Source of the DNA: Candidatus Eiseniibacteriota bacterium
GTDB taxonomy: Bacteria > Eisenbacteria > RBG-16-71-46 > CAVPCR01
Length of the DNA stretch: 64,000 nt
Direction of reading: 5' to 3'
Assembly (NCBI GenBank): GCA_963823555.1
Contig: CAWGMA010000004.1
Coordinates: 480,001-544,000 of the forward strand
The notes below the pieces were generated by a model. That model worked only from the letters and a program-made list of their open reading frames with translations. It was not told the DNA's origin and did not search any database. Shown one piece after another: positions 43,961 to 61,594 of the stretch; position 1 is the first letter of the stretch; each line of letters starts with the position of its first letter. Both the position numbers and the translations under genes were made by a program.

Positions 43961-44554
43961 ATGGCGATGCTAGACGAACGTGCTCTGGTCCTGAACCGTC
44001 ACTGGCTTGCGATCGATACGGTGAGCGTGCGCCGTGCCTTGTGCATGCTCTACCTGGGGGTCGCGCGCGCCGTGGCGCCGGACACGTTCGAGCTCCATGA
44101 CTGGGGGAGTTGGGCCTCCCTCAAGGTGGAAGCAGGGCAGCCGGCCATCCGTGCCGTGCGTTTCCAGATGCGGATGCCCGAGATCGTCTTGCTCCTGGTC
44201 TACGATCGGGTCCCGCGCCAGCGCGTCATCTTCTCCCGGCGCAATCTCTTCCGCCGTGATCAGTTCATGTGCCAGTACTGCGGCCACCAGCCCGGACGCG
44301 ACGAGCTATCGATCGACCACATCGTGCCGCGGTCGCGCGGCGGGCGCAGCACCTGGGCCAATTGCGTCGTGGCCTGCCTCAAGTGCAACAAGCGCAAGGC
44401 GGATCGCACGCTCCCGGAGTCAGGGCTCAGCCTGGTCCGGGCGCCCCAGGAGCCGACGTGGAGCCCATACCTCAGCCTCAACCTGGGCCGGCGTCGCGTG
44501 AGCTGGGAACGGTTTATCTCCGAGAAGTACTGGAACGTCGAGCTTGAAGAGTAG
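43961..44554 (+). CDS. HNH endonuclease (McrA-like)
   Basis: LVLNRHW, FSRRNLFRRD, CQYCG, IDHIVPRSRGG, NCVVACLKCN..K. Confidence 0.93.
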   Translation: MAMLDERALVLNRHWLAIDTVSVRRALCMLYLGVARAVAPDTFELHDWGSWASLKVEAGQPAIRAVRFQMRMPEIVLLLVYDRVPRQRVIFSRRNLFRRDQFMCQYCGHQPGRDELSIDHIVPRSRGGRSTWANCVVACLKCNKRKADRTLPESGLSLVRAPQEPTWSPYLSLNLGRRRVSWERFISEKYWNVELEE

Positions 44555-44752
44555 TGCTCTCCTCCGGCTGGACTCCTGATCCTGTTCGGGTCCGGGTTGT
44601 CGATTTGATCAGGTCGGAATCGGCTCGAGTTCTCGCGTGGCGGGTGCGAGCAGGACGTTCGCTGATCGCCGACTAGGGGAAGAGGACTGGGCGTGCCTTC
44701 CCGGCCGCGGCGCCGGGCAAGCAGATGATGCCGGCGTCATTGGTCCCGGCCG

Positions 44753-45016
44753 CTAGAAGACTTCTTCCTCGTCCTCGTCTTCATAGTCGTCGTAGTCATC
44801 CTCGAAGTCCTCGTCATCGTCGTCGAAGTCGTCGTCGTCCTCATCGCCGTCTTCATCCTCATCCTCGAACTCGTCGTCATCCTCCATCTCGTCGTCCTCT
44901 TCTTCTTCCTCGTAGGACGCGTAGGCTTCAACGCACTCCGGGCTGCAGAACTTCTGACCGCCGCGGACGATTGGCTTGCCGACGATCGTCTCTTCGCAGA
45001 AAGCGCAGACTGCCAT
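44753..45016 (-). CDS. 87-aa protein: TRASH/YHS-like Cys motif plus poly-Asp/Glu tail
   Basis: MAVCAFC...KFCSPEC followed by about 50 mostly acidic residues; GGAGGT RBS. Confidence 0.75.
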   Translation of the reverse strand: MAVCAFCEETIVGKPIVRGGQKFCSPECVEAYASYEEEEEDDEMEDDDEFEDEDEDGDEDDDDFDDDDEDFEDDYDDYEDEDEEEVF

Positions 45017-45264: not shown

Positions 45265-46395
45265 TCAGGCCGTGGCCGGTCCGCCTGCCGGCTCCGCGGG
45301 CGGGTGAACGGGCCCGGTACCTCCCCTGAAGCGCAGCGCGAACACCTCGAGCTCCCCATGCTCGACCTCGAGCGCGAGCTCCAGGGTGCCGTGGCCGGGG
45401 TCGCGAACCAGGCGATAGAGTCGGGGGGCACTGGCGCGGACCAGGCTCGCCGGGCGGCCTGAGCCATCTGCGGGTTCGAGGTCGCGCCCGGAGCGCTCCG
45501 CGGGTACCGGTCGGCCGTCGACCACAACCCTGACCGCGGTCCCGGCCGCGGGACCGCGGAGCACCGCGCTCACCTCGGCCGCCGTGGCTCGCACCTGGAG
45601 GGCGGCCGGCCGTTCCGGCTGCGGCATCGCGATCAGGCTCTCGCCGGTGGCCCGCCATGGGCCGCTCAGGTACAGGCGGTCGGCGATGCGAAGCTTCGCT
45701 TCCGCGTAGTCGACGGTAGCGCCACTCCGCTCGAGCCCCTCACGGTTTCCAACGCTGCTGCGCAGAAATCCGCCATGGAGATCAGGAGTCGATGGCAGGG
45801 TCGTCGGTTTCGCTGCGGGCGGGGATGGAGCCGGCAGGCGGATCCAGGGACCGATATCAGCGCGGCCCTTGGCCAGAGTGGTGACGAGATGGGTGGCGAT
45901 CTGCGCATACCCGACCGGCCCGGGATGGTCGAGAACGACCTGACCTTCGCGGTCGAGGAGGATCGAGCGTGGCCAGAACCGGTTGTCGAGCGCTTTCCAG
46001 ATCGCGAGGTCGTTGTCGAGAACGACGGGATAGCGGATTCCGAACTCGGCGACGGCAGCAGCGACGTGGGCGCGCTCCGCACCGAAGCTGAACTCGGGTG
46101 TGTGGACCCCGATGATGGTGAGCCCGAAGCGCGTGTACCGCCGGTGCCAGGTCGAGAGAAAGGGTATCGTCCGCAAGGATAGCGGGCAGGTGTAGTCCCA
46201 GAAGACGAGAAGAATCGCACGGTCGGCCAGAGCCGGTTCGATGAAGCAGAGCTCGGGGGGCCCGCCCTCCGGCGACTCGGCCATGAGCAAGGGAGGGGCG
46301 TTGAGCCAGCGCGGCGCGAGCCGGCTCCGAATCTGAGCCAGCGCGCGTCGAGGAGCGCCTGGATCCGGTGTATGGTGCGGAGTCGAGGTGGACAT
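45265..46395 (-). CDS. DipZ-like thioredoxin-fold protein (CxxS variant)
   Basis: FWDYTCPLSLRT, IIGVHTPEF, YPVVLDND, NRFWP, DipZ-like C-terminal domain (PRLYRLV). Confidence 0.8.
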   Translation of the reverse strand: MSTSTPHHTPDPGAPRRALAQIRSRLAPRWLNAPPLLMAESPEGGPPELCFIEPALADRAILLVFWDYTCPLSLRTIPFLSTWHRRYTRFGLTIIGVHTPEFSFGAERAHVAAAVAEFGIRYPVVLDNDLAIWKALDNRFWPRSILLDREGQVVLDHPGPVGYAQIATHLVTTLAKGRADIGPWIRLPAPSPPAAKPTTLPSTPDLHGGFLRSSVGNREGLERSGATVDYAEAKLRIADRLYLSGPWRATGESLIAMPQPERPAALQVRATAAEVSAVLRGPAAGTAVRVVVDGRPVPAERSGRDLEPADGSGRPASLVRASAPRLYRLVRDPGHGTLELALEVEHGELEVFALRFRGGTGPVHPPAEPAGGPATA

Positions 46396-46628
46396 GGCGG
46401 CGAGGGTTGGGAGAACCGTATCGTCTGGGATATCGGCTCGCGGTCGCGCGATGTCAAGCCCGGGGCTCGTCCCGCCTCCCCCGGGTAGCGCCGGCCCGGT
46501 CGCGCCGCTTCGGGCCGGCTCCTGGGGCATCTAGCCCGATCCCGGCGCCCCCGGGTTTGCGCCCCGCGCTATCATCTGCGGCTTTGCCCCCACCAAGGCA
46601 GGACGCCTGGATTCGAGGAGGACCTTCC

Positions 46629-46967
46629 GTGGCGCGATTCGAACGTCATGTCTTCATCTGCACCAATGAACGCCCCGCCGGTCATGCCCGCGGATCGTGC
46701 GCGGCCCGCGGCGCCGTTCCCATTCGCGAGCATTTCAAGGCCGAAGTGCGCCGGCGCGGCCTCAAGGCGCGAGTGCGGGCGAACCAGTGTGGCTGTCTCG
46801 ATGCCTGCGAGCTGGGGCCGACGATCGTCGTCTATCCAGACCAGGTCTGGTACGGCGGAGTCACGCTCGAGGACGTCGACGAGATCATCGAGCGACACCT
46901 CGTGAGTGGGGAGCCCGTCGAGCGCCTTCGCATCCCCGACGGCGGGTTCCCGGAGAGCGAGGGCTGA
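46629..46967 (+). CDS. Thioredoxin-like [2Fe-2S] ferredoxin
   Basis: HVFICTN, GSCAARG, CGCLDACELGP, VYPDQVWY. Confidence 0.92.
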   Translation: MARFERHVFICTNERPAGHARGSCAARGAVPIREHFKAEVRRRGLKARVRANQCGCLDACELGPTIVVYPDQVWYGGVTLEDVDEIIERHLVSGEPVERLRIPDGGFPESEG

Positions 46968-47000: not shown

Positions 47001-48206
47001 CTAGGCTGCGGGTTCGGGCTCCGGGAATCGGCGCACGATCTGATAACGGCTGTCCCGCTGCGCGGGCTCGTATCCCTGCGCCCGGATCAAGCGACGGATC
47101 TCCGCGGCGTCCATCCGCGTGCGGATGGTGCCGGCCGCGGACACCACGTTTTCCTCGAGCATCGTCGATCCGAAGTCGTCGGCGCCGTGATGGAGGGCCT
47201 GGGCCGCAACCTCGGGTCCCATGGTCGGCCACGAGGCCTGGATGTGATCGAAGTTGTCGAGATAGAGCCGGGCCAGCGCCACCTGGCGCAGGTATTCCTC
47301 ACGCCCGGCTCCCAAGGTGGAGCGCAGGCGTGACGCTCCGAGGCTCGTGTTCTCGAACTGCGCCGTCCAGACGATGAAGGCGGTGAAGCCGTTGCCATGA
47401 TCCGCCAGGGATTCATCCTGCAGGGACCGCAGGCGCTCGAGGTGATTCATGCGGTGGTTCACGGTCTCGCCCAGGCCGATGACCATCGATGCCGTCGTGG
47501 TGAGTCCCAGACGCTGGGCGCACCGCATCACGGCCAGCCACTCCGCTGTCTTCTGCTTCTTCGGGCTCACTCGGGAGCGGACCTCGTCATCGAGGATCTC
47601 GGCCCCCCCGCCCGGGAGGCCGGCGAGCCCGGCGGCCATGAGGCGCTCGAGCGTGGTCTCGATGCTCAGGCCCTCGATGGTGGCGAAGTGCTCGATCTCT
47701 GACGGCGAGAAGGCGTTGATCTCGATGGTCGGGAAGGTGGCGCGAATCCACCGCAGCAGATCTTCGTACCAGGTGAGGCGGAGATCCGGGTGGTGCCCCC
47801 CCTGCATGAGGATGCGAGTGCCCCCGGCCGCCACCAGTTCCTGGATCTTCTCCTCCAGTATCTGGTGCGAGTTGACGTAGGCCTCGGGATGCCCGGGGGG
47901 CCGGTAGAAGGCACAGAACTGGCAGTCCGTGATGCAGATGTTCGAGTAGTTGATGTTGCGATCGACGAGGTAGGTGACGCGCCGGGCGGGCGCGCGTGCG
48001 GCGCGCCGGGCCGCGGCGTGGTGGCGAAGATCGCCGATCGGCGCTCGGGTGAAGAGGATCTCGCCATCGCGTGGCGTGAGACGGGCGCCGGCCGCGGCGC
48101 GGCCGAGGGCGGCCGCCAGCTCGGGATCGCCGCTCGCTTTCGGCACCGCGGCGGCCCCGGTGGAGCTCGGCTGAACGCTGGGGCGGAGGCGGGAATCCTG
48201 GGTCAC
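47001..48206 (-). CDS. mqnC: Cyclic dehypoxanthine futalosine synthase (radical SAM)
   Basis: DRNINYSNICITDCQFCAFYR, ILMQGGHHP, PGGGAEIL, HIQASW, GADDFGSTMLEENVV. Confidence 0.9.
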   Translation of the reverse strand: MTQDSRLRPSVQPSSTGAAAVPKASGDPELAAALGRAAAGARLTPRDGEILFTRAPIGDLRHHAAARRAARAPARRVTYLVDRNINYSNICITDCQFCAFYRPPGHPEAYVNSHQILEEKIQELVAAGGTRILMQGGHHPDLRLTWYEDLLRWIRATFPTIEINAFSPSEIEHFATIEGLSIETTLERLMAAGLAGLPGGGAEILDDEVRSRVSPKKQKTAEWLAVMRCAQRLGLTTTASMVIGLGETVNHRMNHLERLRSLQDESLADHGNGFTAFIVWTAQFENTSLGASRLRSTLGAGREEYLRQVALARLYLDNFDHIQASWPTMGPEVAAQALHHGADDFGSTMLEENVVSAAGTIRTRMDAAEIRRLIRAQGYEPAQRDSRYQIVRRFPEPEPAA

Positions 48207-48386: not shown

Positions 48387-48695
48387 ATGATCATGCTCGA
48401 GTTCAGCCTGAGTCCGCTCGACAAGGGGCCGAGCATTGGCGCAGAGGTGGCGCGCTGCCTCGACATCATCGACTCGAGCGGTGTCGACTACCGGTTCGGT
48501 CCGATGGGCACGGTGCTCGAGGGCACCTGGGACGAGGTCTTTCAGGTGGTCCGGCGATGCTTCGAGCGCGCCAGCGAGGACTGTGAGCGGATCTCGCTCG
48601 CCATCCGCGTCGACCACCGGAAGGGGGCCGGCCCACGCCTGCCGGACCGGATCGAGCGCATCGAGGAGCGCGTCGGTCGGAAGCTCCGCACCTGA
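48387..48695 (+). CDS. MTH1187/thiamine-binding-protein family
   Basis: MLEFSLSP, VARCLDII..SG, GPMGTVLEG, RISLAIRVD. Confidence 0.88.
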   Translation: MIMLEFSLSPLDKGPSIGAEVARCLDIIDSSGVDYRFGPMGTVLEGTWDEVFQVVRRCFERASEDCERISLAIRVDHRKGAGPRLPDRIERIEERVGRKLRT

Positions 48696-48860
48696 GTTTT
48701 CGCCAGGGCGCCGCCGCTTGTTCTTGACCCGGCGTCCTGGATCGGCACAATGGATAACCCCGCCGCCCGGCGGCGCGGCCCGCCCGGGCCGGCCCGGCGG
48801 CGGCAGACGCGATAGGCCCGGCTCCGCCCCGGCTTGACGCCGGCGCCGAGCGGAGGACGA

Positions 48861-49886
48861 GTGACGACACCCGAACAGCTGAGCCCACTCGCTCCGCGTC
48901 CCGATCAGGCCGCCCTGGCCCGTGCACTCGAGGCCTTCGACGATTTCGTCGATGCCGAGGTCGGCGACACGACGCTGCAGCGTGCCCGCAATCTGGAACG
49001 CGAGACCGGCCTCCGGCAGATCTATCTCAAGTTCGAGGGCGGCAATCCGACCGGCACGCAGAAGGACCGTGTCGCCTTCACGATGGTGCGCGACGCGCTG
49101 CGACGCGGCTACGAAGTGATCACCGTCGCTACCTGCGGCAACTTCGGTGCCGCCATCGGTTACGCGGCGCGCACCGCGAAGATGCGCTCGATCGCCTTCG
49201 TTCCGGAGAGCTTCTCGACGCGCCGAGCCACCGAGATGGAGGCGACGGGCACGCATGTCATTCGCGTCCCCGGCACCTACGAGGATGCCGTGATGATGAG
49301 CCGGGAGCGGGCGGCGCTCCACGAATGGTATGACGCCAATCCAGGCTCGGAGAACGGCGACCTGCAGCTCGAGGCCTATGCCGGCATTGCCTACGAGATC
49401 TTCGATGAGCTGCGCGACGCCCCGGCCGCCGTGGCCGTGCCGGTCTCGAATGGGACCACGCTCGCCGGCATTCATCATGGTTTCGTGCGCCTGGAGAGGC
49501 GCGGGAAGATCTCGCGCGTGCCGCGCATGATCGGGGCGTCCACCTATCGCAAGAACCCCATCGTGCGCTCGTTCGTCAACAACTTGCCGCAATGCGTCGA
49601 TCTCGATCCGGCCGATGCCAAGGAGACCGGCATCAACGAGCCGCTGGTCAACTGGCATGCCTTCGACGGTCAGCTTGCCCTTGATGCCATTCGCGTCTCG
49701 AGTGGCTGGGCCGGCGACGCTTCGGACAAGGCCATGCTCGCCCACGCCCGGCTCTTGCGTGAGCGCGAGGGGCTCGACGTGCTGCCGGCCTCGACCTCGG
49801 CCCTCGCCGTCCTGCTCAAGGGGCACGCCCAGAGCCCGCTACCCCCGGATCGTTACGTGGTGGTCTTGACCGGTCGCCGGGGCTAG
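48861..49886 (+). CDS. PLP-dependent enzyme, threonine-synthase-like (fold type II)
   Basis: YLKFEGGNPTGTQKDR (PLP lysine), ATCGNFG, PVSNGTTLAG, VLTGR. Confidence 0.9.
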   Translation: MTTPEQLSPLAPRPDQAALARALEAFDDFVDAEVGDTTLQRARNLERETGLRQIYLKFEGGNPTGTQKDRVAFTMVRDALRRGYEVITVATCGNFGAAIGYAARTAKMRSIAFVPESFSTRRATEMEATGTHVIRVPGTYEDAVMMSRERAALHEWYDANPGSENGDLQLEAYAGIAYEIFDELRDAPAAVAVPVSNGTTLAGIHHGFVRLERRGKISRVPRMIGASTYRKNPIVRSFVNNLPQCVDLDPADAKETGINEPLVNWHAFDGQLALDAIRVSSGWAGDASDKAMLAHARLLREREGLDVLPASTSALAVLLKGHAQSPLPPDRYVVVLTGRRG

Positions 49887-49888
49887 CC

Positions 49889-51058
49889 ATGGACGAATCC
49901 GAGCGCGACAGCGCGGAAGCGAGCAGGCAGGCTCCCCTCGACGGCACCGCGGTCGTCTACTGCGAAGGTGCCTTCGGGTCGCCCAACGGCAAGACGGCGC
50001 ACGGTCTCGTGCGTCATACGCGCCGCTACGAGGTCGCCGCGGTCATCGACTCGCGTCTTGCCGGACGCGATGCCGGCGACGTGCTCGATGGAACCCCGGC
50101 CGGTATCCCGATCGTGGCCACCATCGAGGACGCCGAGCAGGCGGCACGGGCGCGGGGCGCTGCCCTCACCCACTTCGTGATCGGGCTGGCGCCGGATGGC
50201 GGGCGGCTCCCGCGAGAGGCGCGCGAGATCGTCCTCGCCGCCATCCGCCGCGATCTCAGCGTCGACTCGGGGCTCCACGATTATCTGACGGAGGACCCCG
50301 AGATCGCCGACCTCGCTGCTCGTCGCGGGGTCCATCTGCGGGATATCCGCAAGCCGAAGACGACGCGCGATCTTCACTTCTTCACGGGTCGGATCGCCGA
50401 GGTCCAAGCGGTCGTCCTCGCCATGCTCGGGACCGACTCGGCCGTCGGCAAGCGCACGACCGCGATGCTCCTCGAGCGTGGGCTCAGGGCGCGCGGGCTC
50501 AACGCGGTCATGATCGGGACCGGGCAGACGGCCTGGCTCCAGGGCGTCCGTTACGGCCTGATCCTCGACTCCACGGTCAATGATTTCGTGGCCGGCGAGA
50601 TCGAGCATGCCATCCTCGCCGCCTGGGAGGCGGAGCGTCCCGATGTCATCCTCCTCGAGGGGCAGGGGAGCCTGCTGAACCCGGCTTACCCTGGGGGTTT
50701 CGAATTGCTGGCCGCCGGTCGCCCGCAGGGGATCGTGCTGCAGCACGCGCCCGCCCGCGTCGACCACGATGGATTTCCGGGATTCCCGATCGGGCCGATC
50801 GAGCGCCACATCCGGCTCCTCGAAGAGATCTCCGGCCGCCCGGTGCTCGCGGTCACCCTGAACCACGAGGGATTGACTCCCGAGGCCGTGACCGAGACCG
50901 CGGATCGACTCGAGCGAGAGCTCGGACGTCCGGTCGTCGATGTCCTCCGCGATGGACCGGGGCGCCTGGTCGAGGAGATCCTCGGACGCTTCCCACAACT
51001 CGCCGCCGTGGCTCGCGAAACGCCGGCGGGTGTCGTCAACGGGGGTAAGGATGGCTGA
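49889..51058 (+). CDS. DUF1611 family P-loop protein (DgcN-like N-acetyltransferase)
   Basis: GKTAHGL, IG.A..GG.LP, SGLH, GTDSAVGKRT, TGQT, DFVAGEIE, EGQGSL. Confidence 0.9.
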   Translation: MDESERDSAEASRQAPLDGTAVVYCEGAFGSPNGKTAHGLVRHTRRYEVAAVIDSRLAGRDAGDVLDGTPAGIPIVATIEDAEQAARARGAALTHFVIGLAPDGGRLPREAREIVLAAIRRDLSVDSGLHDYLTEDPEIADLAARRGVHLRDIRKPKTTRDLHFFTGRIAEVQAVVLAMLGTDSAVGKRTTAMLLERGLRARGLNAVMIGTGQTAWLQGVRYGLILDSTVNDFVAGEIEHAILAAWEAERPDVILLEGQGSLLNPAYPGGFELLAAGRPQGIVLQHAPARVDHDGFPGFPIGPIERHIRLLEEISGRPVLAVTLNHEGLTPEAVTETADRLERELGRPVVDVLRDGPGRLVEEILGRFPQLAAVARETPAGVVNGGKDG

Positions 51059-53667
51059 GGCGAAACGCGCGACCAGGGCGGCGGCACGGAACAAGGCGAG
51101 ACGCACCGCCAAGGCGGCGCGCTCGACGGAGACAGGAGCCACGGCCAAGAAGGCGCGCTCGAAGAAGACGGCGAAGAAGGCGGCGACGAAGACGGGAGAG
51201 ACGGCGAGCGAGGGAGACGGCGAAGAGGACGGCCGCCGGAGAGAGCTTCTTCGACCGGCTGGTGGTTCTCGACCGTCTCGTCGTCACCCGCCCTCGTGTG
51301 GAGCGGCGGCGTGCCACCGCCCAGCTCATTGCGATCGGGAAGGACGGGCATGATGGCCGCGGCGAGATGGGGTTTGCCTACGAGGAGGACGTGTTCCAGC
51401 CCGGGGACCCGGCTTCGGAGAACCTCGCCGCTCTGGCCTGCGCCCAGGTCGCGCTCAATTACGGGCTCTTCGCCCGCGAGATCGTCTTCGAGGGCCTGCT
51501 CGATGCCACCGACATCGAGTTCCTGACCGCCGCCGCGCGCAACACGGCGGGCGAGATCTACGTGCACAAGATCGCGGCCGAGAATCCCTTTCTCGATCCG
51601 GGTGTCGCGGCAGAGCCCTTCATCCCCCGGCGGGACTACCTCCAGGCGCGGATCGTCGCCGATATGGCGCGTCCGGTGGCGCAGCCCGCTGGAGAGGCGA
51701 GGCGGCATGCCGTGCTCTCCTCGGGAGGCAAGGAGAGCCTTCTCAGCTACGGCCTCCTGCGTGAGCTGGGCGTGGAGGCCCATCCCATCTTCATCAATGA
51801 ATCGGGGCGGCATTGGTTCACGGCGCTCAATGCCTATCGCTGGTTCCAGGCGCGCGTGCCGGAGACGGCGCGAGTCTGGACCAGTGCCGATCGCATGTTC
51901 AACTTCATGCTGCGTCAGCTCCCGTTCGTGCGTCCCGATTTCGCCCGCATTCGCTCCGACCAGTACCCGATCAGGCTGTGGACGGTCGCGGTCTTCGTGT
52001 TCGCCGCGCTCCCGGTGCTCTTGGCCCGGCGCATCGGCCGCCTGATCATCGGTGACGAGTTCGACACGACTCAGTTCTCGCGCCGGCAGGGTGTGCCGCA
52101 CTATCACGGCCTCTTCGATCAGAGCGTCTTCTTCGATCAGATGCTCAGCCGTTTCTACCGCGACAAGGGACTGGCCATCGAGCAGACCTCGGTGCTTCGC
52201 AACTGCTCCGAGCTGCTCGTCGAGAAGGTGCTTGCCGAACGCTACCCCGAGCTCCTGGCGCTCCAGGTCTCCTGTCATGCCACGCATGTCGAGGGGGATC
52301 GCGTGCTGCCCTGCGGGATCTGCGAGAAGTGCCGGCGCATCGTTGCCATGACCAGAGCGCTCGGCATCAATCCACGCGTCCTCGGCTATGACGACCAGGC
52401 CGTGGCGCGCATTCTCGAGGTGCTGGGGAGCCGCGGACTGAGCCAGGAGGCGCCGGTCATGGAGCACGTGGCCTGGCTCCTGAAGAAGCGGGGCGATCTC
52501 CCCGGATCGATGATCGGGCGCTCGCGTGCCAGGGCGCACCCCGAGGTGCTCAAGCTGCGCGTCGACTCGACGCGCTCGCCGGTCACGGCGATACCCGGGG
52601 ACCTCCGTCACCCCCTGGTGTCGCTCCTGGCTCCGCACGCCGAGGGTGTCGTCCAGCGAGTGGGAAGGAAGTGGCAGGCCGTGTCTCGCGTCGCCGATCT
52701 CGGGCCGGAGGCGAGCGGCGGAGCGCCGGCCCGGCCCGGGACGCGCCAGATCACGCGCGGCAAGTCCCCGGGGGTGCGTGCTCCCGCGCGCCATGCCGGG
52801 CGCGCCGCCCCGGCGGGCAGGATGGCCGCCGCCGGCAAGGTCGTGGGGCGCCAACGCGGTGGGACACCAGAGGTCGATTCCCTGGCCGACATCCTGGTGG
52901 CTCACATGACCTGGGAGGAGGCGCGCGACCGCTTCCGGGCGGCCGAGATCGCTCTCTTGCCCGTCGGATCCACCGAGCAGCACGGGCCCCATCTCAGTCT
53001 GGACATCGACACTTACGACGCCGAGTACCTGTCGATCGCGGCGGCGCGGCGCGTGAGCGCGCCTCGGCCGCTGGTCCTGCCCACGATCGCCTACGGCGTG
53101 GCCTATCACCACATGGATTTCCCGGGCACGCTGGCCATCAGTCCCGATGTCCTGTCCCGGCTCGTGGTCGAGGTCGGAATGTCGGCGGCGCGGCATGGCA
53201 TCTCGAAGCTGGTCATCGTCAATGGTCATGGCGGCAACGTACCGGCCCTGCGCTACGCCGCGCAGATCATCAATCGCGATGCGCGCATCTTCACCTGCGT
53301 CGATTCCGGAGAGACCTCTGATGCCGAAGTCGCCGCACTCATCGAGACGCCGAACGACGTGCACGCCGGGGAGTACGAGACCTCGACCTCGATGGCGACT
53401 CGTCCCCATCTCGTGCGCACCGACCGCATGCGGCGATCGGTGCCCCGCCTCTCGTCCAAGTACCTGGATTTCACCGAGCGCAACTCGGTCGAATGGTACG
53501 CGCGCACGGCGCGCTTCTCGGACTCGGGTGTGCTGGGAGATCCCACCCGGGCCACCCGTGACAAGGGGGAGAAGCTGTGGGCGATCATGATCGATCACCT
53601 GGTGGCGTTCCTCGAGGACCTGAAGGTCCTCCGGCTCGGTGAGCTGAGGAGCCGCCGCAATGAGTGA
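51051..53667 (+). CDS. Fusion protein: Lys/Ala-rich N-tail, PP-loop (MurL/QueC-like) domain and creatininase-family amidohydrolase; apparent frameshift near 51210
   Basis: LSSGGKESLL, SCH...PCGICEKC, then MTWEE, PVGSTEQHGPHL..D.D, HH..FPGT, NGHGGN, DVHAGEYETS, SGVLGDP; the ATG 51051 frame differs from the main ORF 51262-53667. Confidence 0.82.
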
Positions 53668-53690
53668 ACCCCGGAGCTCGTGAGGAGCCG

Positions 53691-54812
53691 ATGCCGATCC
53701 GTCGCCTCGATGTGGCCCGCCTGCGCATGCCGCTCATCCAGCCGTACACGATCGCCTATGAGACGGTGTTCGCGGCCGAGAACATCCTGGTGCGGCTGCA
53801 AGATGAACGCGGGCGTTCGGGGTGGGGTATCGCGGCCCCCGATGAGGCCGTGACCGGCGAATCCCTCGAGACCGCCGCCGAGGCCATCGAGCGGATCATC
53901 CATCCCCATGTGATCGGGGCCGATCCGACGCGGGTCGCCCGCTCCGCCGTCCGCCTCGAGCGCCTGGCTCCGGCCGCGCCGGGGGCGCGGGCCGCGATCG
54001 AGATGGCGATGTGGGATCTGCTGGGCAAGCGGGCCGGGCTCCCCGTGTATCAGCTCCTGGGCGGTTACCGGAGCAGCATCCTGACCTCGATCACGATCGG
54101 CATCTCGGATCTGAAGGACACCGTGAGCGAGTCGCGCGAGCGCGTGAAACAGGGGTTCCGCGCGCTCAAGATCAAGGGCGGGCGCGATCTCGACGAGGAT
54201 GTGGAGCGTCTCATGCGCACCCGCGAGGCCGTGGGCCCCCGGATCCGCCTCCGCTTCGATGCCAACCAGGCCTATGATGCCGATCAGACCCTCGTTCTCA
54301 TCGAGCACACCAAGGCGGCCAACCTGGAGATGATCGAACAGCCGACGCCGCGCGACGCCTTGCGCGAGCTGCGCCGGGTGCAACGCAAGAGCCCGGTCCC
54401 GGTGATGGCTGATGAGTCGTCCCTCAACCTCTTTGACGCTTTCAAGGTGGCGCGCGGTCGGCTTGCCGACCTCGTCAACGTCAAGCTCATGAAGTGCGGC
54501 GGGATCATGTCGGCGATGCAGGCGATCGCCGTCGGCTTCTCCTCGGGGACCGCGGTGATGGTGGGATGCATGGATGAATCCGAACTGGGTATCGCCGCCG
54601 GCCTCGCCGTCGCCCTGGCCCGTCCCGGCGTGACCGCTGCCGATCTCGACGGGCACATCGATCTCCAGAACGACCCCGCGGCGGGCATCCTCAAGCTGAA
54701 GGCGGGAGTGCTGCATCCCTCGCCGGCGCCGGGTCTCGGCATCACGTCGGCGATCGAGGATCGGCTCGAGGATGCCATGGGCCAGCTCCCGCTCGGACTG
54801 GCCGCCCCGTAG
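53691..54812 (+). CDS. Enolase-superfamily epimerase/racemase (L-Ala-D/L-Glu epimerase, DgcA-like)
   Basis: LKIKGG, RFDANQ, IEQP, MADES, NVKLMKCGG, GCMDES, DLDG. Confidence 0.92.
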   Translation: MPIRRLDVARLRMPLIQPYTIAYETVFAAENILVRLQDERGRSGWGIAAPDEAVTGESLETAAEAIERIIHPHVIGADPTRVARSAVRLERLAPAAPGARAAIEMAMWDLLGKRAGLPVYQLLGGYRSSILTSITIGISDLKDTVSESRERVKQGFRALKIKGGRDLDEDVERLMRTREAVGPRIRLRFDANQAYDADQTLVLIEHTKAANLEMIEQPTPRDALRELRRVQRKSPVPVMADESSLNLFDAFKVARGRLADLVNVKLMKCGGIMSAMQAIAVGFSSGTAVMVGCMDESELGIAAGLAVALARPGVTAADLDGHIDLQNDPAAGILKLKAGVLHPSPAPGLGITSAIEDRLEDAMGQLPLGLAAP

Positions 54813-54851: not shown

Positions 54852-56117
54852 TCAGTCCCGGGTCTCGGCGAGGACCTCGTTGTAGACGGCCTCGATGCGT
54901 TCGACCCTGGCATCCCAGCCGAACGCCCGCGCGGCCGCGGCGAGCGCGGCTCGATCCCAGGTGCGCCCCAGCGCGATCCTGAGTCCCTGGGCGAGCTCCG
55001 CGTCCCCCTGGGGCGGGACCAGGATCCCGGTCACTCCATCCACCACGCACTCGGGGACCCCACCCACTCGGCTGGCCACGACGGGTGTGCCGGCTGCCAT
55101 GGCCTCGGGAATCACGAGCGGCAACCCCTCGCTCGAACTCGGCAGAACAAGGAGATCGGCGGCGGCGAGCCAGAGGGGCATCTCAGCATGCGGGCGTTGC
55201 CCGGCGAAGAGGACCCGAGGGATGAGGCCGAGGTCGCGAACCAGCGCGCGGAGCCGCTCCTCTTCCGGACCGGCCCCGGCAAGGACCAGCGTCACGACGG
55301 GCATCGCGGGTTCCGCAGAAAGCTGCGCCAGGGCGCGAATGAGGCGATCGACCTGCTTCACCGGCAGGAAGTCGCCGGCGAACACGACGAGCGGGGTCGG
55401 TTCGGCGACGACCGGCTTCCCGAGGAGGCTCGCGCTCTCGGCTCGGCACGCGGCCCGATCGCGCGGGGTGAAGCGTGCGGTATCGACGCCGTTGGCGATC
55501 ACCTCGAGCCGCTGTGGCGGCGCCCCGGCGGCCATGAGTCGGTCTCGAATGTCACGGCTCACACAGAGCACGCGGGCGGCGGAGCGGACGGCAGCCAGCG
55601 TCTGGGCGCGGTAGCGGATGCCGTCGGGCCGGTCGAGGCGGGCAACGTCGCTGCCGTGGGCGGTGATGATCGCCGGGCGGCGCAGCGCACGCGCCGCCGC
55701 CACCGTTGCCCCGCCGTGCGGGTAGAGCCAATGACCGTGCAGGAGGTCGGGCCGGCCGCTCCGGTGGGCGGTGGCCAGGATGGCTCGTACCATGAGGAGC
55801 GGGTCCAGCAGCGGCCACAGTCCAGGGAGGTGGAGTTGCCGGGGGCGAAAGATGCGGAGTTCGTGCTCGCCGATCCGCTCGTGTTCCTCGGCCGGGGCTC
55901 TGGGCACCTCGGCGCGCTTCTCCGCATAGTGCTGGAGCGGCGGGTACAGACGATAGGGAGCGACCACCGAAACCTGGTGATGTGCGGCCAGGCGCTCGAC
56001 CTGCGCCCGCACCGCCACCTGCATGCCGCCCCGGGTGAGCGCCGGAGCGGAGAACGTGGGCGTGCAGACGAGGAGGCGAAGCGAATCAGGCTGACCGGAA
56101 TCGCGATCTCGGACCAG
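54852..56117 (-). CDS. Glycosyltransferase family 4
   Basis: HGHW, TAHGSD, NGVD, LPSSSEGLPLVIPEAMAAG, VGGVPE; frame stays open upstream of ATG 56024 to CTG 56117. Confidence 0.9.
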   Translation of the reverse strand: MVRDRDSGQPDSLRLLVCTPTFSAPALTRGGMQVAVRAQVERLAAHHQVSVVAPYRLYPPLQHYAEKRAEVPRAPAEEHERIGEHELRIFRPRQLHLPGLWPLLDPLLMVRAILATAHRSGRPDLLHGHWLYPHGGATVAAARALRRPAIITAHGSDVARLDRPDGIRYRAQTLAAVRSAARVLCVSRDIRDRLMAAGAPPQRLEVIANGVDTARFTPRDRAACRAESASLLGKPVVAEPTPLVVFAGDFLPVKQVDRLIRALAQLSAEPAMPVVTLVLAGAGPEEERLRALVRDLGLIPRVLFAGQRPHAEMPLWLAAADLLVLPSSSEGLPLVIPEAMAAGTPVVASRVGGVPECVVDGVTGILVPPQGDAELAQGLRIALGRTWDRAALAAAARAFGWDARVERIEAVYNEVLAETRD

Positions 56118-56285
56118 GGCTCATCCTCCGGACGATCATCGTCCGCTCACGGATCGGGCCCGCGTGCTGCGGGGCCGCCACAGAAAACACAGCAAGCCGG
56201 GGCATGGTAGCAGAAGCAGAGCGGGCGGCGCGTGATAGGATGGGCGGGCGCCGCCTCGAGGCGCGAGGGACAAGAGAACGGAGCG

Positions 56286-57290
56286 ATGGCAACGATCCTG
56301 ATCACCGGAGCAAGCGGATTCGCCGGCGGACATCTGGCCTCGGCCCTTGCCGCCATGGAGGGCCCGGGGGGGCGTCCGGTGCTCGTCGGCCTGGGCCAGG
56401 GTCCGCTCGATCCGGCGCTCGAACCGCTCTTCGCTGCCTACCACGACGGGGATGTGACCGATTTCGATTTCTTGCGCCGCGTCATCGGCTCGGCGCGCCC
56501 GGACCGCGTCTATCATCTCGCCGCGATCACGTTTGGTCGCCCCGCCGGCCCCACCGACCAGCGCTTTCTCGATGTCAACGTCCAGGGGACCCGTCTTCTC
56601 TTCGAGGCGCTGCTGGCGGCCGAGATCACGCCCCGGGTTCATATCGCTGGTTCGAGCGCGGTGTATGGCGCGGCAGTGGCGGACCCGATCACCGAGGACA
56701 CCCCGCTCAAACCGCAAACGCCCTACGCGGCGAGCAAGGCGGCGCAGGAGATGATCGCGCTGGCCTATGGCAGGGGAGAGGGGTTTCCGGTCATCGTGAC
56801 CCGTGCCTTCAACCACACCGGTCCCGGCGAGCACCCGCACTTCGCCGCTTCCACCTTTGCGCGCCAGATCGCCGCGGCGGAGGCCGGAACCGGGGATCCT
56901 TGCATCCGTGTCGGCAATCTGGCGGCCTATCGCGACTTCACCGACGTTCGCGATATCGTCCGCGGCTATGTCACGGCGCTCGAGCACGGGGCGGCAGGAG
57001 AGTGCTACAACGTCTGCTCCGGAACGGCGACGCGAATCGAGGATGTTCTCGACATGCTGCGCCGCAAGGCTCGCGTCCCGGTCGAGGTGGCTGTCGACCC
57101 GGATCGCCTCGCGCCGGCCGACGTTCCCTTCCAGCGGGGAAGCCACGCGAAGCTCGCCGATGCGACGGGCTGGCGGCCCACAATCCCGCTCGCCACGACA
57201 CTCGCCGATCTCCTAGACTACTGGCGGCGGCGCTCGGTGGCGAGTCGGCCCGGTCCCGCCTCGCCGGTGAGCGACGCACCCAGGGGGTGA
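56286..57290 (+). CDS. GDP-sugar reductase/dehydratase (RMD-like SDR)
   Basis: ITGASGFAG, YHLAA, GSSAVYG, YAASK, RAFNHTGPG, VGNL...RDFTDVRD. Confidence 0.88.
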   Translation: MATILITGASGFAGGHLASALAAMEGPGGRPVLVGLGQGPLDPALEPLFAAYHDGDVTDFDFLRRVIGSARPDRVYHLAAITFGRPAGPTDQRFLDVNVQGTRLLFEALLAAEITPRVHIAGSSAVYGAAVADPITEDTPLKPQTPYAASKAAQEMIALAYGRGEGFPVIVTRAFNHTGPGEHPHFAASTFARQIAAAEAGTGDPCIRVGNLAAYRDFTDVRDIVRGYVTALEHGAAGECYNVCSGTATRIEDVLDMLRRKARVPVEVAVDPDRLAPADVPFQRGSHAKLADATGWRPTIPLATTLADLLDYWRRRSVASRPGPASPVSDAPRG

Positions 57291-57292
57291 GC

Positions 57293-58285
57293 ATGATGGA
57301 ATGGACAGATCGTCCGGTCTTGGTAACCGGCGCCGGTGGTTTCATCGGCAGCCATCTGGTCGAGGAACTGGTCCGCGCCAAGGCGCGGGTTCGTGCCTTC
57401 GTGCGCTACAACTCGCGCGGCTCGCGCGGGTTCCTCGATGATTTCGCGCCCCAGGTGCTGGAGCGGATCGAGGTCGTGTCCGGCGATCTGCGCGATGCCA
57501 ACGCGGTGGCCAACGCCATGCGGGAGGTGAGCACCGTCTTCCACCTCGGTGCCCTGATCGCCATTCCCTACTCGTATCGCAACCCGCGCGAGGTGGTGGA
57601 GACCAACGTCATCGGCACGCTCAATGTGCTGGCCGCCGCCCGTGATCTCGGCACGGAGCGCATCGTTCACACCTCCACCAGCGAGGTCTACGGCACGGCG
57701 CAGTACGTGCCGATCGACGAGAAGCATCCGCTGGTCGGCCAGTCGCCCTATTCCGCGTCCAAGATCGCGGCGGATCAGGTGGCGGAGAGCTTCCATCGCT
57801 CCTATGGTCTGCCGGTCGTGACCGTGCGCCCGTTCAACACCTATGGGCCGCGGCAATCGGCGCGGGCGGTGATCCCCTCGATCATGATCCAGGCCATCAC
57901 GCAGGACCGGATCTTCCTCGGGGCGACCCACCCGACCCGTGATCTGGTCTTCGTCAAGGACACGGTGCGCGGCTTCATGGCGCTGGCGGCATGTGATGCC
58001 GCCATAGGACAGGTGGTGAACCTGGGGAGCGGACGTGAAGTCTCGGTGCGCGAGCTCGCCGAGCGCATCGTGGCGCTCGTCGGCCGTCCGGTCGAACTGG
58101 TCTTCGATGCCACCCGTCTCCGCCCGGAGCGGAGCGAGGTGGACCGGCTCCTCGCCGACAACCGGCGAGCCAAGGAGCTGAGTGGGTGGGAGCCGGTGGT
58201 GAACCTGGAGGATGGGCTCCGCGCCACCATGGACTGGATCGGCGAGCACGCCGCGCTCTATCGCCCGAGCGAGTACGCTGTCTAG
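57293..58285 (+). CDS. NAD-dependent nucleotide-sugar 4,6-dehydratase (LegB-like)
   Basis: VTGAGGFIGSHL, FVRYNS, HLGALIAIPYSY, TSTSEVYG, QSPYSASK, RPFNTYGPRQSARA, RLRPERSEV. Confidence 0.9.
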   Translation: MMEWTDRPVLVTGAGGFIGSHLVEELVRAKARVRAFVRYNSRGSRGFLDDFAPQVLERIEVVSGDLRDANAVANAMREVSTVFHLGALIAIPYSYRNPREVVETNVIGTLNVLAAARDLGTERIVHTSTSEVYGTAQYVPIDEKHPLVGQSPYSASKIAADQVAESFHRSYGLPVVTVRPFNTYGPRQSARAVIPSIMIQAITQDRIFLGATHPTRDLVFVKDTVRGFMALAACDAAIGQVVNLGSGREVSVRELAERIVALVGRPVELVFDATRLRPERSEVDRLLADNRRAKELSGWEPVVNLEDGLRATMDWIGEHAALYRPSEYAV

Positions 58286-58374
58286 CGCGGCGGCGAAGAC
58301 CCGTGGCCGAGGAAGGAACGAAGGCGAGGCTCGCCGAGGGACAGATCGGCGGCCGGCATGCCGATAGGGTGACC

Positions 58375-59073
58375 ATGCACGCGGTGATCATGGCCGGCGG
58401 GCTGGGGACGCGACTCCGCCCGCTGACCTACGCCATCCCCAAGCCCCTGCTCCCGATCGGCGATCGGCCGATTCTCGAGATCCTGCTCACCCAGCTGGCC
58501 CGCGGGGGGTTCCGCCAGGTCTTCATCTCCACGGGATACAAGGGGGATCTCATCAAATCCTACTTCGGGGATGGACATCGCTTCGGTCTGGTCCTGCGCT
58601 ATGTGGAGGAAAAGGAGCCGCTGGGCACCGCCGGAGCGCTTGGCCTCGTCCGTGACGAGCTCACGCAACCGTTCCTCATGGTGAACGGTGACATCCTCAC
58701 GCGGTTCGACTTCGGCGCCTTCATCGCCCGCCATGCTGAGAGCGGTGCCGAGCTCACGGCGGCTGCGGTGCGTCACGAGATCACGATCCCCTATGGAGTG
58801 ATCAGGAGCAACGGCGAGACCATCGCCGAGGTGGTCGAGAAGCCGACCGAGACCCGGCTCGTGCTGGGCGGCATCTACGCCATGTCCCCGCCGGCCCTCC
58901 GCCACCTGCCGCCGGCTGGTGAGAGAGTGGACGTCCCCGAGCTCATCGGGCGCGCCATCCGGGGTGGTGGGAAGGTCCTCTACCAACCGATCGATGCCTT
59001 CTGGATGGATGTCGCCAAGATGGACGACTTCGAGCGGGCGCGGCAGGAGCTGGCCACCTGGGATGACGTGTAG
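58375..59073 (+). CDS. Sugar-phosphate nucleotidyltransferase
   Basis: IMAGGLGTRLRPLT..IPKP, EPLGTAG, NGDIL, IPYGVI, EKP. Confidence 0.92.
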   Translation: MHAVIMAGGLGTRLRPLTYAIPKPLLPIGDRPILEILLTQLARGGFRQVFISTGYKGDLIKSYFGDGHRFGLVLRYVEEKEPLGTAGALGLVRDELTQPFLMVNGDILTRFDFGAFIARHAESGAELTAAAVRHEITIPYGVIRSNGETIAEVVEKPTETRLVLGGIYAMSPPALRHLPPAGERVDVPELIGRAIRGGGKVLYQPIDAFWMDVAKMDDFERARQELATWDDV

Positions 59074-59107
59074 CCGCCGCTAGCTCGGGCGCCGGCCGGG
59101 GAATTCC

Positions 59108-60304
59108 ATGCACGTCCTGTTTCTCGCCGAGGACTACACACCGCTTGCGAGTGCGCAGGGTGGTGTGCGCGTGAGCCTGGCTCAGCAGGCAGAGGGACTC
59201 GCGCGTGAGATCGAGGTGACGGTGCTCTCACCGCGGCGCCTCTTTCCCCCGCTCGGTCGCTACCGCGCCACGGGCGTGCCGCAGAAGCCACCGTCCGGCG
59301 AGGCTGCAGAGGATCTGGCGGCAAGTCGCGTGCGCATCCTGCGCCCCCGCATCCTCCATGTGCCGATCCTGTGGCCGATCACCGAGCCCTTGCAGCTCCT
59401 CGCTGCCGGCGCCCAGGCGCTCCGCGGCCCGGCGCGCGGGGCCCACATCGTGCACGGTCATCGCGCTTTTCCCATGGGTCTCGTCGCCGTTCTCCTCGGA
59501 CGTCTGTTTCAGCGGCCGAGCGTGGTCACGGTCTACGGCACCGAGGTCAACGTCGAGGCGGACTCCTCGCATCGGGTTCTGCGCCGCTTCGTGCGCGCCG
59601 GCCTCAGGGCCGACCGCTTGATCGCCGTGAGCCGATCCCTCGCCGAGCGCGCGCCGGCCATCGGCGTCCCTGGGTCCCGCATCCGTACGGTGCCGAGCGG
59701 AGTCGATCTCGTGCGGTTCGCTCCGGGAGATCGCGCTCGCGCCCGCCGGGAGCTCGGGCTCCCCGCCGATCGCTTCATCTTTCTCTCGATGAACCTGTTC
59801 GATCCCGTGAAGGGGCACGCGATCCTCATCGCGGCCATGAGCGAGCTCGCTCGGCGCCACCCGGGGCGGGCCTTCCTCGCCATGACCGGGGATGGTCCCG
59901 AGCGACCGCGGATTGCGGCCGAGGCGCGCGCGCTCGGGATCGAGAGCGATGTCCGTTTCGCCGGTCTCCGTCCCTATGGCGAGCTTCCGCTCTGGGTGAG
60001 CGCGGCCGATGCGCTCGTCCTCCCCAGCCTCAATGAGGGCATGCCGCTCACCGTGCTCGAGGGCTTTGCCGCCGGGAAGCCGGTCGTCGGCTCGTCGATC
60101 GGTGGCATTCCCGAGGTGGCGCCCGACGAGCGCTACGGGATCCTCGTGCCCCCAGGCGATCCTCGAGCCCTCGCGGCGGCCCTGGGCGCGGCCATCGACC
60201 GGCCCTGGGATTCGGGCGTCATCCGCGCCCGGGCCCAGTCCTTCGCGTGGCCGGCCGTCATCGAGCGGATCCGCGAGGTCTACTCCGAGCTCCTGCCGGG
60301 CTGA
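59108..60304 (+). CDS. Glycosyltransferase family 4
   Basis: HGH, YGTEV, SGVDL, KGH, LPSLNEGMPL..LEGFAAG, IGGIPE. Confidence 0.9.
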   Translation: MHVLFLAEDYTPLASAQGGVRVSLAQQAEGLAREIEVTVLSPRRLFPPLGRYRATGVPQKPPSGEAAEDLAASRVRILRPRILHVPILWPITEPLQLLAAGAQALRGPARGAHIVHGHRAFPMGLVAVLLGRLFQRPSVVTVYGTEVNVEADSSHRVLRRFVRAGLRADRLIAVSRSLAERAPAIGVPGSRIRTVPSGVDLVRFAPGDRARARRELGLPADRFIFLSMNLFDPVKGHAILIAAMSELARRHPGRAFLAMTGDGPERPRIAAEARALGIESDVRFAGLRPYGELPLWVSAADALVLPSLNEGMPLTVLEGFAAGKPVVGSSIGGIPEVAPDERYGILVPPGDPRALAAALGAAIDRPWDSGVIRARAQSFAWPAVIERIREVYSELLPG

Positions 60305-60531: not shown

Positions 60532-61044
60532 ATGCGGAAGTTCGTTCCCGTTCTGCTCGCGCTCGCCGTCATGGCTTGGGCGCCATCCGCCCTGGCCCAG
60601 AGCACCGCGAGCGCCGACATCACGGCGCGGGCCACCGTCCTCGGCCCGATCACCGTCACCAATCAGGCGGACCTCGAATTCGGCAACGTGATTCCCGGCG
60701 TCGCGAAGTCCGTTGCGATCAGCGGCACCACGTCCGGCCGCTGGCTCGTCGCGGGCAACGCCGGCGCCGAGGTGAATCTCGACTTCACGGCGCTGCCGAA
60801 CAACCTGACCGGTCCGGCCACGATGTCGATCACGTACGCCGCCAACGATGCCGGCCACAACGTGACCAACAACGCCGCCGGGGCCGTGCCCTTCGATCCG
60901 GCCGGGACCGCGCTGGCGAACATCGGAAATGCTCCGGCGGAGCTCTACGTCTGGATCGGCGGCACGGTGAACCCGGTCGCGGGACAGGCGGCGGGTCTCT
61001 ACACCGGGACCATCACCCTGCAGGCGGCCTACACCGGCAACTAG
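60532..61044 (+). CDS. DUF4402-like pilin, probable major subunit
   Basis: Signal peptide, ITARATV N-terminal strand, DLEFG, VWIGGTV, GLYTGTITL..Y. Confidence 0.75.
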   Translation: MRKFVPVLLALAVMAWAPSALAQSTASADITARATVLGPITVTNQADLEFGNVIPGVAKSVAISGTTSGRWLVAGNAGAEVNLDFTALPNNLTGPATMSITYAANDAGHNVTNNAAGAVPFDPAGTALANIGNAPAELYVWIGGTVNPVAGQAAGLYTGTITLQAAYTGN

Positions 61045-61078
61045 CTCGACTGCGGACCCCTGTTGCCACGGAGGGACG

Positions 61079-61594
61079 GTGAGGAAGGGGAGCGGATCAT
61101 GGTCGCCGGCGATCCTCGTGATCGTCTCGGCGCTCGTGCTGCCAGCGATGGTCGGACGCGCGGAGCCGGAGGCGGATGCACCCGGCTCCGCCGCGCCGCC
61201 GCCGCAGGGTCGCCAGCCCCTTGACTTCGGAGACGTGGTGGCGGGGATCGAGCTGAGCGTGAGCCGGCTCGATGGGCGCCGCGCCGGATCGTGGAAGCTC
61301 TTCGGTCGAGAGGATCAGGAGGTGCTCCTGACCTTCAACCTGCCGGCGGCACTCGCCGGTCCGCGCGGGGCGGCGTTGCCGATCCGGTTCGGCCGGGAGG
61401 ACGGCGGGTTCACGACCGAGCACCGGCCCGACCAGGCGCGGGGCTTCGATCCGCAGGTGCCGTATCTCGGCCGGCTGGGTCGCGGTGGTCATGCCTACGT
61501 GTTCCTGGGCGGCACCGTGAGTCCGCCGCTCGGGCAGCGTGCCGGAGCATATCAAGGCACGGTGACGCTCACCGTCGCCTTCACGGCGAATTGA
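61079..61594 (+). CDS. DUF4402-like pilin 2
   Basis: Signal peptide, LDFGDV, FDP, VFLGGTVSP, GAYQGTVTLTVAF. Confidence 0.72.
   Translation: MRKGSGSWSPAILVIVSALVLPAMVGRAEPEADAPGSAAPPPQGRQPLDFGDVVAGIELSVSRLDGRRAGSWKLFGREDQEVLLTFNLPAALAGPRGAALPIRFGREDGGFTTEHRPDQARGFDPQVPYLGRLGRGGHAYVFLGGTVSPPLGQRAGAYQGTVTLTVAFTAN

Follow-up and report, generated by a model that had tools for sequence, protein, structure and literature searches.

A four-gene cassette found in bacteria and, as a three-gene core, in archaeal-type loci combines known enzyme folds in an undescribed, candidate amino-acid pathway

Within a 64,000-nucleotide stretch of DNA from a Candidatus Eiseniibacteriota bacterium (assembly GCA_963823555.1, contig CAWGMA010000004.1, positions 480,001 to 544,000 of the forward strand; hereafter the window), four consecutive plus-strand genes form a cassette whose order is kept across many bacterial groups and whose first three functions recur in archaeal-type loci. 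The genes encode a pyridoxal phosphate (PLP) enzyme of family PRK06381, a DUF1611 protein, a fusion of a QueC-fold PP-loop domain with a creatininase-family domain, and an enolase-superfamily epimerase homologue (Table 1). The sequence-only reading that preceded this work had proposed that the four genes form one operon and that they specify an uncharacterized amino-acid pathway. Both proposals hold up: the cassette genes are co-conserved far above chance, and no paper describing them was found in a search that most subscription papers lie outside (PMC11685415 and bioRxiv 10.1101/2022.03.03.481873 contained nothing relevant). The cassette brings known folds together in an undescribed pathway. 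Our tentative reading is that it would build and recycle a small peptide-like metabolite, with a core that acylates an amino acid and, at the expense of ATP, inverts the terminal residue.

Two scans underlie these statements. A GTDB scan gave at least 577 relatives, of which the best 80 were retained (a set skewed to close, fused forms), and a metagenome scan seeded by a Thermoplasmatota protein yielded the best 80 of 547 matches, referred to here as archaeal-type loci; counts refer to loci with enough flanking sequence. In the GTDB loci, DUF1611 lies upstream of the PP-loop gene in 76/78, the PLP gene is present in 73/73, the creatininase domain in 74/76, and the epimerase gene is adjacent in 60/65. 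All four genes stand in the same order in 53 of the 59 fully covered GTDB loci, which span many named bacterial groups; of the loci with names, the nearest two, at 81% and 73% identity, are titled Candidatus Eisenbacteria. Seven of 40 relatives carry the PP-loop gene, and cassette order is kept in all seven. Distance correlations between the genes range from 0.36 to 0.92; since related genomes are not independent samples, these values do not demonstrate co-evolution. Distribution is patchy: PRK06381 scores above its cut-off in 7/251 genomes of one phylum and 10/251 of another (seed genomes included), every one of these genomes also has a strong PP-loop match, and each of the two phyla contains one further strong or distant PP-loop match without PRK06381.

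The archaeal-type set was examined as loci, and missing hydrolase or epimerase genes may sit elsewhere in the genome. These loci contain DUF1611 (67/68) and the PLP gene (47/50) beside the PP-loop gene, never the creatininase domain (0/66), and more variably a convergent GNAT gene (50/80), an M14 hydrolase (20/80) and the epimerase (19/80). They have, in other words, a PLP-DUF1611-PP-loop core, with the epimerase and hydrolase acting as an optional module. Not all of the 80 were placed taxonomically, and one, L161, appears bacterial; archaeal neighbors (proteasome alpha, topoisomerase VI B and archaeal D-aminoacyl-tRNA deacylase) were confirmed at three loci, and the named sources of PLP homologues are Thermoplasmatota, Thorarchaeota, Promethearchaeota, Thermoprotei and Nitrososphaerales. 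Besides this set, two loci (L088 and L230) keep the epimerase in the absence of the creatininase, and an 855-amino acid protein that forms a single-member cluster (P0125) fuses DUF1611 to the PP-loop domain. No member of the PP-loop family was found in plasmids.

The sequence-only reading would be undercut if the PLP enzyme were an ordinary threonine synthase, which is unlikely. Its scaffold is that of threonine synthases, which are its closest folds (1V7C and 6CGQ; Z 38.4, root-mean-square deviation (rmsd) 2.4, 302 aligned residues, ~25-28% identity), and its hidden Markov model (HMM) scores are 196 bits for PALP and 422 bits for PRK06381 (cut-off 266), a model itself named threonine synthase. 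The thrC model, however, scores 97.5 against a cut-off of 167.1, and the Arg of the NPxRLEG motif, which binds phosphate in threonine synthase, is replaced by Gln in 72/72 bacterial copies. A separate thrC is present in four other cassette genomes; in the window's genome (92.5% complete) no thrC rises above the cut-off, and neither homoserine dehydrogenase nor thrB was found. A further difference from threonine synthase is Cys92 in the substrate loop, which is invariant in 119/119 copies and aligns (mapped via L181) with the latter of the two Ser residues in the SSGNH loop, the re-face-base position of serine racemase, which we take to be Ser84 of the human enzyme. Because a thiol is the better acid, racemase activity of PRK06381 is a real possibility; it is weakened by threonine synthase and cysteine synthase, which carry Thr/Ser at that position and do not racemize. 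The accessible text of PMC6424897 describes Ser84 of human serine racemase as the re-face base, and where serine racemase has this Ser before G-N the cassette enzyme has Cys. The PLP enzyme is likely a racemase or a beta/gamma-replacement enzyme, and the threonine-synthase annotation of PRK06381 is probably wrong. In most homologues (L019-L096) the N-terminus is also extended by a conserved acidic segment (LLDGA ... LEERLEAFEDI); the window copy and its two nearest relatives lack the initial portion of this segment, and several archaeal forms lack it entirely. A PRK06381 enzyme, WP_284688346.1, with an intact Cys motif (432 bits) is encoded on a plasmid of the cultured bacterium Chondrinema litorale (L217; NZ_CP111053.1:172466-176080), in an operon with ppk2, an AstE/DoeB-like deacylase and a 2-oxoglutarate (2OG)-Fe(II) oxygenase.

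The DUF1611 protein is predicted to form an amide bond, as an N-acyltransferase or, given the intact P-loop, perhaps an ATP-dependent ligase; the GTDSxxGKRT sequence of this loop is invariant in 128/128 copies. The accessible parts of PMC11747546, PMC10845958 and PMC12363236 describe the related protein DgcN as a D-Glu N-acetyltransferase and its partner DgcA as an N-acetyl-D-Glu racemase, and the sequence-only reading had drawn on this D-Glu route. Its operation in the cassette finds little support: the DUF1611 protein scores 145 bits against the DgcN model (NF041892, cut-off 480), the epimerase 162 bits against the DgcA model (NF042940, cut-off 400), the epimerase pocket is acidic, and a second DUF1611-epimerase pair in the same genome scores higher (DgcN 252 and DgcA 210 bits, both also under cut-off). 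A distant homologue is predicted as an N-succinyl-L-glutamate synthase in the available portion of GapMind 2026 (PMC13759103), and nothing in the available portion of PMC10690619 connected DUF1611 with cyclic 2,3-diphosphoglycerate synthetase. The second pair lies on contig C1 (G000:C1:1224105-1226218; L184:9106-11240), with a bacillithiol-like cluster of bshC, a PIG-L deacetylase gene and a GT4 gene immediately upstream of it. Elsewhere (L212:4351-6779), a DUF1611 gene is followed by an ornithine-racemase-like (Orr-like) gene scoring 368 bits against a cut-off of 480.

The N-terminal part of the third gene belongs to a family of at least 2748 database proteins that has no family model. Its first 490 amino acids match no Pfam entry above cut-off and match MurL weakly (E 9e-5), and a sequence search for solved relatives found none. 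The predicted structure (pLDDT 96.5) is closest to QueC (Z 12.9, rmsd 3.1, 190 aligned residues) and Cap9 (Z 12.8), the longest Foldseek match is QatC (TM 0.40, 448 columns, E 7.6e-7), and SGGKxS, ESGxHW, SCH and CGxCxKC are invariant across 123 sequences. In a language-model feature search, MurL clusters stood directly behind the family's own (score 0.96, 27/30 matches). The domain is predicted to be a QueC-like (HUP) adenylating enzyme of MurL-like architecture that acts on a carboxylate; it may work like MurL and is not a MurL member. In the accessible text of PMC5808125 and PMC8788868, MurL consumes ATP, releases AMP and converts a terminal L-Glu to D, with an adenylate proposed, and in that of PMC5808125 it works from L to D only. 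An amide-forming enzyme almost always stands beside the PP-loop gene, whether DUF1611, GNAT or, in one locus, an ATP-grasp-type protein. In that locus (L208:2-3223), lysine-2,3-aminomutase-like and D-Ala-D-Ala-ligase-like genes directly precede a stand-alone PP-loop gene, an arrangement that the query used did not find in 40 relatives; an aminomutase-like plus ligase-like (plus HDAC/GNAT) cluster also lies near the cassette in 5/80 loci (L024, L032, L037, L039 and L082).

The creatininase domain shares an open reading frame (ORF) with the PP-loop domain in 70/72 full-length cases. It scores 234 bits against PF02633, above the gathering score, keeps the metal-ligand motifs, and falls under the cut-off of every named member (MftE 157/172, creatininase 100/235, IolN 74/245, ArfB 29/180), placing it nearest, by these scores, to the peptidase MftE. 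The sequence-only reading had suggested that it could supply a deacylation. Amide hydrolysis is plausible, and M14 and AstE/DoeB-like hydrolases occur in variant loci; the step is not obligatory, as the domain is missing from the archaeal-type loci and from L088 and L230. An N-formylglutamate amidohydrolase cluster lies near the cassette in 4/80 loci (L027, L029, L090 and L091), and the window's genome has a homologue split across several frames (C2:431361-432130).

The epimerase homologue retains the catalytic and metal-binding residues (KxK, three metal ligands and the second Lys) in 73/73 near-full-length copies and D320 in 72/73. Position 24 is Glu in 69 of these copies, Gln in three and Asp in one, and is never the Arg of Ala-Glu epimerase; Asp51 is present in 72/73, and position 295 is Asp in 58/58 bacterial and Asn in 15/15 archaeal-type copies. 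The dipeptide epimerases 1JPM/1TKK, 3JVA and 3RIT and the racemase 2P88 share all catalytic and metal residues with it. Among five aligned structures, only 3RIT and 2P88 have an acid at position 51, a residue that presumably binds the substrate side chain, and none has Glu24. The combination of GCMDE with an acidic residue 51 is as in 3RIT, which we assume to act on Lys/Arg dipeptides; 2P88, an N-succinyl-Arg/Lys racemase that we take to be BC0371, shares Asp51 but lacks the DxD motif that the cassette epimerase has. The accessible text of PMC2948282 identifies BC0371 as an N-succinyl-Arg racemase, and according to that of bioRxiv 10.1101/2022.05.01.490185, Arg24 of Ala-Glu epimerase holds the carboxylate of Glu, whose dipeptide is bound at its ammonium group by D321/D323. 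The predicted substrate is a free-amine dipeptide with a C-terminal basic residue rather than N-acetyl-Glu: the basic residue is suggested because the E24/D51 pocket is acidic, the free amine because DxD is kept. Alternatively, the substrate may be an N-acyl basic amino acid.

From the observed gene order, conservation, folds and residues, we infer reactions, a direction, a product and a stress role as follows. The PLP enzyme would supply or racemize an amino acid, which DUF1611 would attach by forming an amide. At the cost of ATP, the QueC/MurL-like domain would then activate the terminal carboxylate as an adenylate and change the configuration of that residue to D, after which the epimerase would return the residue to L and the fused creatininase domain would cleave the product. 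A basic residue is predicted at the terminus, either Lys, Arg, Orn or some shorter diamino acid, and the product would have a stress-protective role; the recurring neighbors include Mg transporters, MscS, Hsp20, GroEL and sigma-54 regulators. Such a build-and-recycle cycle would explain why a PP-loop gene follows an amide-forming enzyme and why archaea may have or lack the epimerase and hydrolase as a module. It would also fit the lack of a recurring uptake system: among the recurring neighbors scanned, for which part of the 60 listed clusters were annotated, transporters of amino acids or peptides were not found. Slightly more doubtful is a bolder version, in which bacteria and archaea share a pathway to a D-configured stress solute that is either a basic dipeptide or a cyclic amidine. 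Two new chemistries would be involved: one is a Cys/Lys two-base racemase on the threonine-synthase scaffold, represented by the whole, misannotated PRK06381 family, and the other is a cell-wall-independent, MurL-like ATP-driven epimerase or ligase joined in one protein to the hydrolase that reverses its work.

Several observations weigh against the build-and-recycle cycle. The closest solved folds of the PP-loop domain (QueC, Cap9 and QatC) make nitriles or amidines, not epimers. Likeness to MurL is at the level of overall features, and the MurL model NF041275 scores 21 bits against a cut-off of 700 (38 bits for the best relative tested). Fusing a biosynthetic domain with a degradative one would call for regulation that is not seen here, and a PLP racemase would make three stereo-inverting enzymes, apparently redundantly. 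The stress-related neighbors each occur in at most 19/80 loci, and none was seen around the window copy. Modules also appear to be lost singly: DUF1611 is missing from L069 and from L161, which has only the PP-loop and GNAT genes; L100 and L106 have DUF1611 and the PP-loop gene without the PLP gene; L227 has only the PLP and DUF1611 genes within 16 kb, with no PP-loop gene nearby; and the Chondrinema litorale PLP gene likewise has no PP-loop gene nearby.

Two other pathways share most of their steps with the build-and-recycle cycle, and the sequence data do not separate them from it. One, which we regard as unlikely, is linear: the PLP enzyme makes or racemizes an amino acid that DUF1611 N-acetylates, the PP-loop domain adenylates it and ligates it to a basic amino acid, the creatininase domain deacetylates the product, and inversion of the final residue by the epimerase yields a free dipeptide. 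Here the order of steps equals the order of genes, the DxD motif implies that the amine is free when the epimerase acts, and the invariant Cys suits a racemase feeding a D-specific acetyltransferase (another DUF1611 gene stands beside the Orr-like racemase gene in L212); QueC-fold relatives pass adenylated carboxylates to amines. Both late steps are nevertheless missing from most archaeal-type loci, L088 and L230 have the epimerase without the creatininase that should precede it, and in L208 an ATP-grasp ligase already adjoins the PP-loop gene, albeit at one locus whose arrangement did not recur in 40 relatives. The other, to which we give a similarly low probability, is D-amino-acid salvage or detoxification, with DUF1611 acetylating a D-amino acid, the PP-loop domain driving it irreversibly to L, the creatininase domain freeing it, the epimerase handling D-basic dipeptides and the PLP enzyme racemizing or deaminating. 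Many of the record titles are of groups of sediment heterotrophs, and inversion followed by deacylation would account for the PP-loop/creatininase fusion. DgcN, a D-Glu N-acetyltransferase, belongs to an irreversible racemization route in the accessible text of PMC11747546 and PMC12363236. Salvage fits poorly, however, with the lack of a recurring uptake system among the scanned neighbors, with the L-to-D direction of MurL, and with a genome that already has a second DUF1611-epimerase pair and MurI.

An ectoine-like solute cycle appears improbable. In it, the QueC-fold domain would use ATP to activate an amide oxygen and convert an N-acetyl diamino acid to a cyclic amidine, which the creatininase domain would reopen. 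Creatininases open a cyclic amidine and QatC/Cap9 form amidines; the epimerase pocket suits a basic side chain, some recurring neighbors are osmotic or ion-transport genes, and the Chondrinema litorale PLP gene accompanies a DoeB/AstE-like deacylase and an oxygenase. At that locus, though, DoeB scores 68 against a cut-off of 403 and no EctD match was found at 1e-8, the DxD motif favors a dipeptide, and the nearest creatininase-family model is a peptidase. Modification of a partner protein, as in QatC-QatB or Cap9-CdnD, with the creatininase domain removing the small molecule that the QueC-like domain attaches, seems very improbable: QatC is the longest structural match and a DUF1611-PP-loop fusion exists, but partner N-termini are variable, the partners' own small-molecule active sites are intact, and no defense genes were found among the recurring neighbors scanned. 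We give equally little credence to the sequence-only reading's extension of the DgcN-DgcA route, with glutamate or the stem peptides of peptidoglycan as substrates, since, although a DUF1611 protein, an epimerase homologue and an amidohydrolase do share one operon, HMM scores are far under cut-off, Glu replaces Arg24, the three-gene core occurs in archaea, including Thermoplasmatota, and the genome encodes the glutamate racemase MurI, making peptidoglycan synthesis an unlikely core function.

The third gene extends over ~51051-53667. The earlier description of the operon, with a 2-bp gap between the PLP and DUF1611 genes, a 23-bp gap from the end of the third gene to the ATG at 53691 and an MTH1187-family gene upstream, is accurate except at the overlap: the frame read from the ATG at 51051, which overlaps the stop codon of DUF1611, is 100 codons long, rich in Lys/Ala/Thr and closed at 51353, and the enzyme body lies in the next frame relative to it. 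In close relatives the gene begins at this overlapping ATG, in frame, and 51051 is the probable true start here. Public contigs align gap-free at 50971-51185 and 51215-51428, and none of the pieces listed spans 51186-51214; the break is either an assembly error or a real frameshift. A sigma-70-like promoter match between the MTH1187 and PLP genes weakly suggests that the cassette is transcribed separately from the MTH1187 gene (two promoter-type sites were found versus 0.4 +/- 0.7 in shuffled sequence). No terminator-like sites were found, and an Rfam search gave a single match, below threshold. A sigma-54 motif lies upstream of the cassette in 8/68 loci versus 2/68 intragenic controls, a weak excess, and was not seen at the window copy.

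Table 1. Coordinates of the cassette features and of the sequence just upstream (window positions).
Feature	Position	Strand	Details
MTH1187-family gene	48387..48695	+	upstream neighbor, outside the cassette
Sigma-70-like promoter match	48724..48751	+	TTGACC-16-CACAAT; gap upstream of PLP gene; 9/12 matches
Fold-type II PLP enzyme, family PRK06381	48861..49886	+	Cys92 codon 49134-49136
DUF1611 protein, DgcN-related	49889..51058	+	PF07755 and PF17396 above gathering score
Probable start and low-complexity N-terminus of gene 3	51051..51214	+	out of frame with body; frame change before 51244
QueC-fold PP-loop domain (gene 3)	51244..52695	+	SSGGK 51718-51732; SCH and CGxCxKC, putative zinc site, 52270-52332
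Creatininase-family metal amidohydrolase domain (gene 3)	52900..53667	+	fused to PP-loop domain; EQHG, NGHGGN and HAGExET motifs
Enolase-superfamily dipeptide-epimerase homologue (MR_MLE)	53691..54812	+	K160-x-K162, D190/E216/D241, K265, D318-x-D320; E24, D51, D295

Three genes around the cassette were considered as members and rejected. MTH1187 accompanies it in 2/80 GTDB loci, the two closest relatives, and in 0/80 metagenome loci; mqnC and a glycosyltransferase were likewise dismissed. The mqnC gene (futalosine pathway; 47001-48200, minus strand) is transcribed away from the MTH1187 gene, with a promoter-like site at 48338-48309 (minus strand). Farther upstream are a stand-alone HNH endonuclease gene (43961-44554, plus strand), a short ORF that has a Cys motif, ends in a strongly acidic Glu/Asp tail and lacks a Pfam match at 1e-5 (44737-44916, minus strand), a gene for a redoxin-like protein with a DipZ-type C-terminal domain whose expected CxxC reads TCPLS (45265-46530, minus strand) and, beside it, a small Cys-rich ferredoxin-like ORF (46599-46967, plus strand). 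Downstream, a sugar-nucleotide cluster convergent with the operon (54852-60304) contains two GT4 genes, two NAD-dependent dehydratase genes and a nucleotidyltransferase gene, and is followed at 60532-62526 (plus strand) by a DUF4402 gene, a look-alike neighbor and a gene for a 299-amino acid secreted-looking protein without a Pfam match, a set that by eye is pilin/chaperone-like.

If the build-and-recycle cycle is correct, the unmodeled PP-loop family would gain a function and PRK06381 a corrected annotation, MurL-type chemistry would reach outside peptidoglycan, and uncultured bacteria and archaea would prove to have a D-amino-acid metabolite. Predictions at the level of residues (a basic C-terminal residue, and Cys92 as second base) narrow and cheapen the first assays, and Chondrinema litorale offers a cultured host of the PLP family.

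The cassette resembles several known systems without coinciding with any. With QueC, Cap9 and QatC, the PP-loop domain shares the fold, the SGGxDS loop and the Cys/His zinc-type motif, but it is twice as long as QueC, and no queuosine or defense genes are found among the recurring neighbors scanned. The operon for the dipeptide osmolyte N-acetylglutaminylglutamine amide (NAGGN), which encodes a GNAT/ATP-grasp protein, an asparagine-synthetase-like PP-loop enzyme and a peptidase, has in common with the cassette an acyltransferase, a PP-loop enzyme and a peptidase, whereas the cassette lacks the glutaminase domain and the ATP-grasp and adds a PLP enzyme and an epimerase. DgcN-DgcA (EC 2.3.1.312 and 5.1.1.25; PDB 7XRJ) likewise places a DUF1611 protein and a dipeptide-epimerase-family protein in one operon; the cassette proteins differ in falling below both cut-offs, in the two further enzymes and in an acidic instead of an Arg-containing epimerase pocket, and in archaeal-type loci DUF1611 is tied to the PP-loop gene (67/68) and not to the epimerase (19/80). 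MurL shares with the PP-loop domain a length of ~460 amino acids, an additional N-terminal portion, a Cys cluster and a place after an amide-forming enzyme; the cassette domain, in contrast, is fused to a creatininase domain, occurs in archaea, stands apart from mur genes (none of which is among the recurring neighbors scanned) and is found in hosts that have MurI (4/5 cassette genomes, including that of the window). In the accessible text of PMC8788868, MurD2-MurL follows an order of ligase then inversion, and the order in the cassette, an amide-forming enzyme and then the PP-loop enzyme, is the same.

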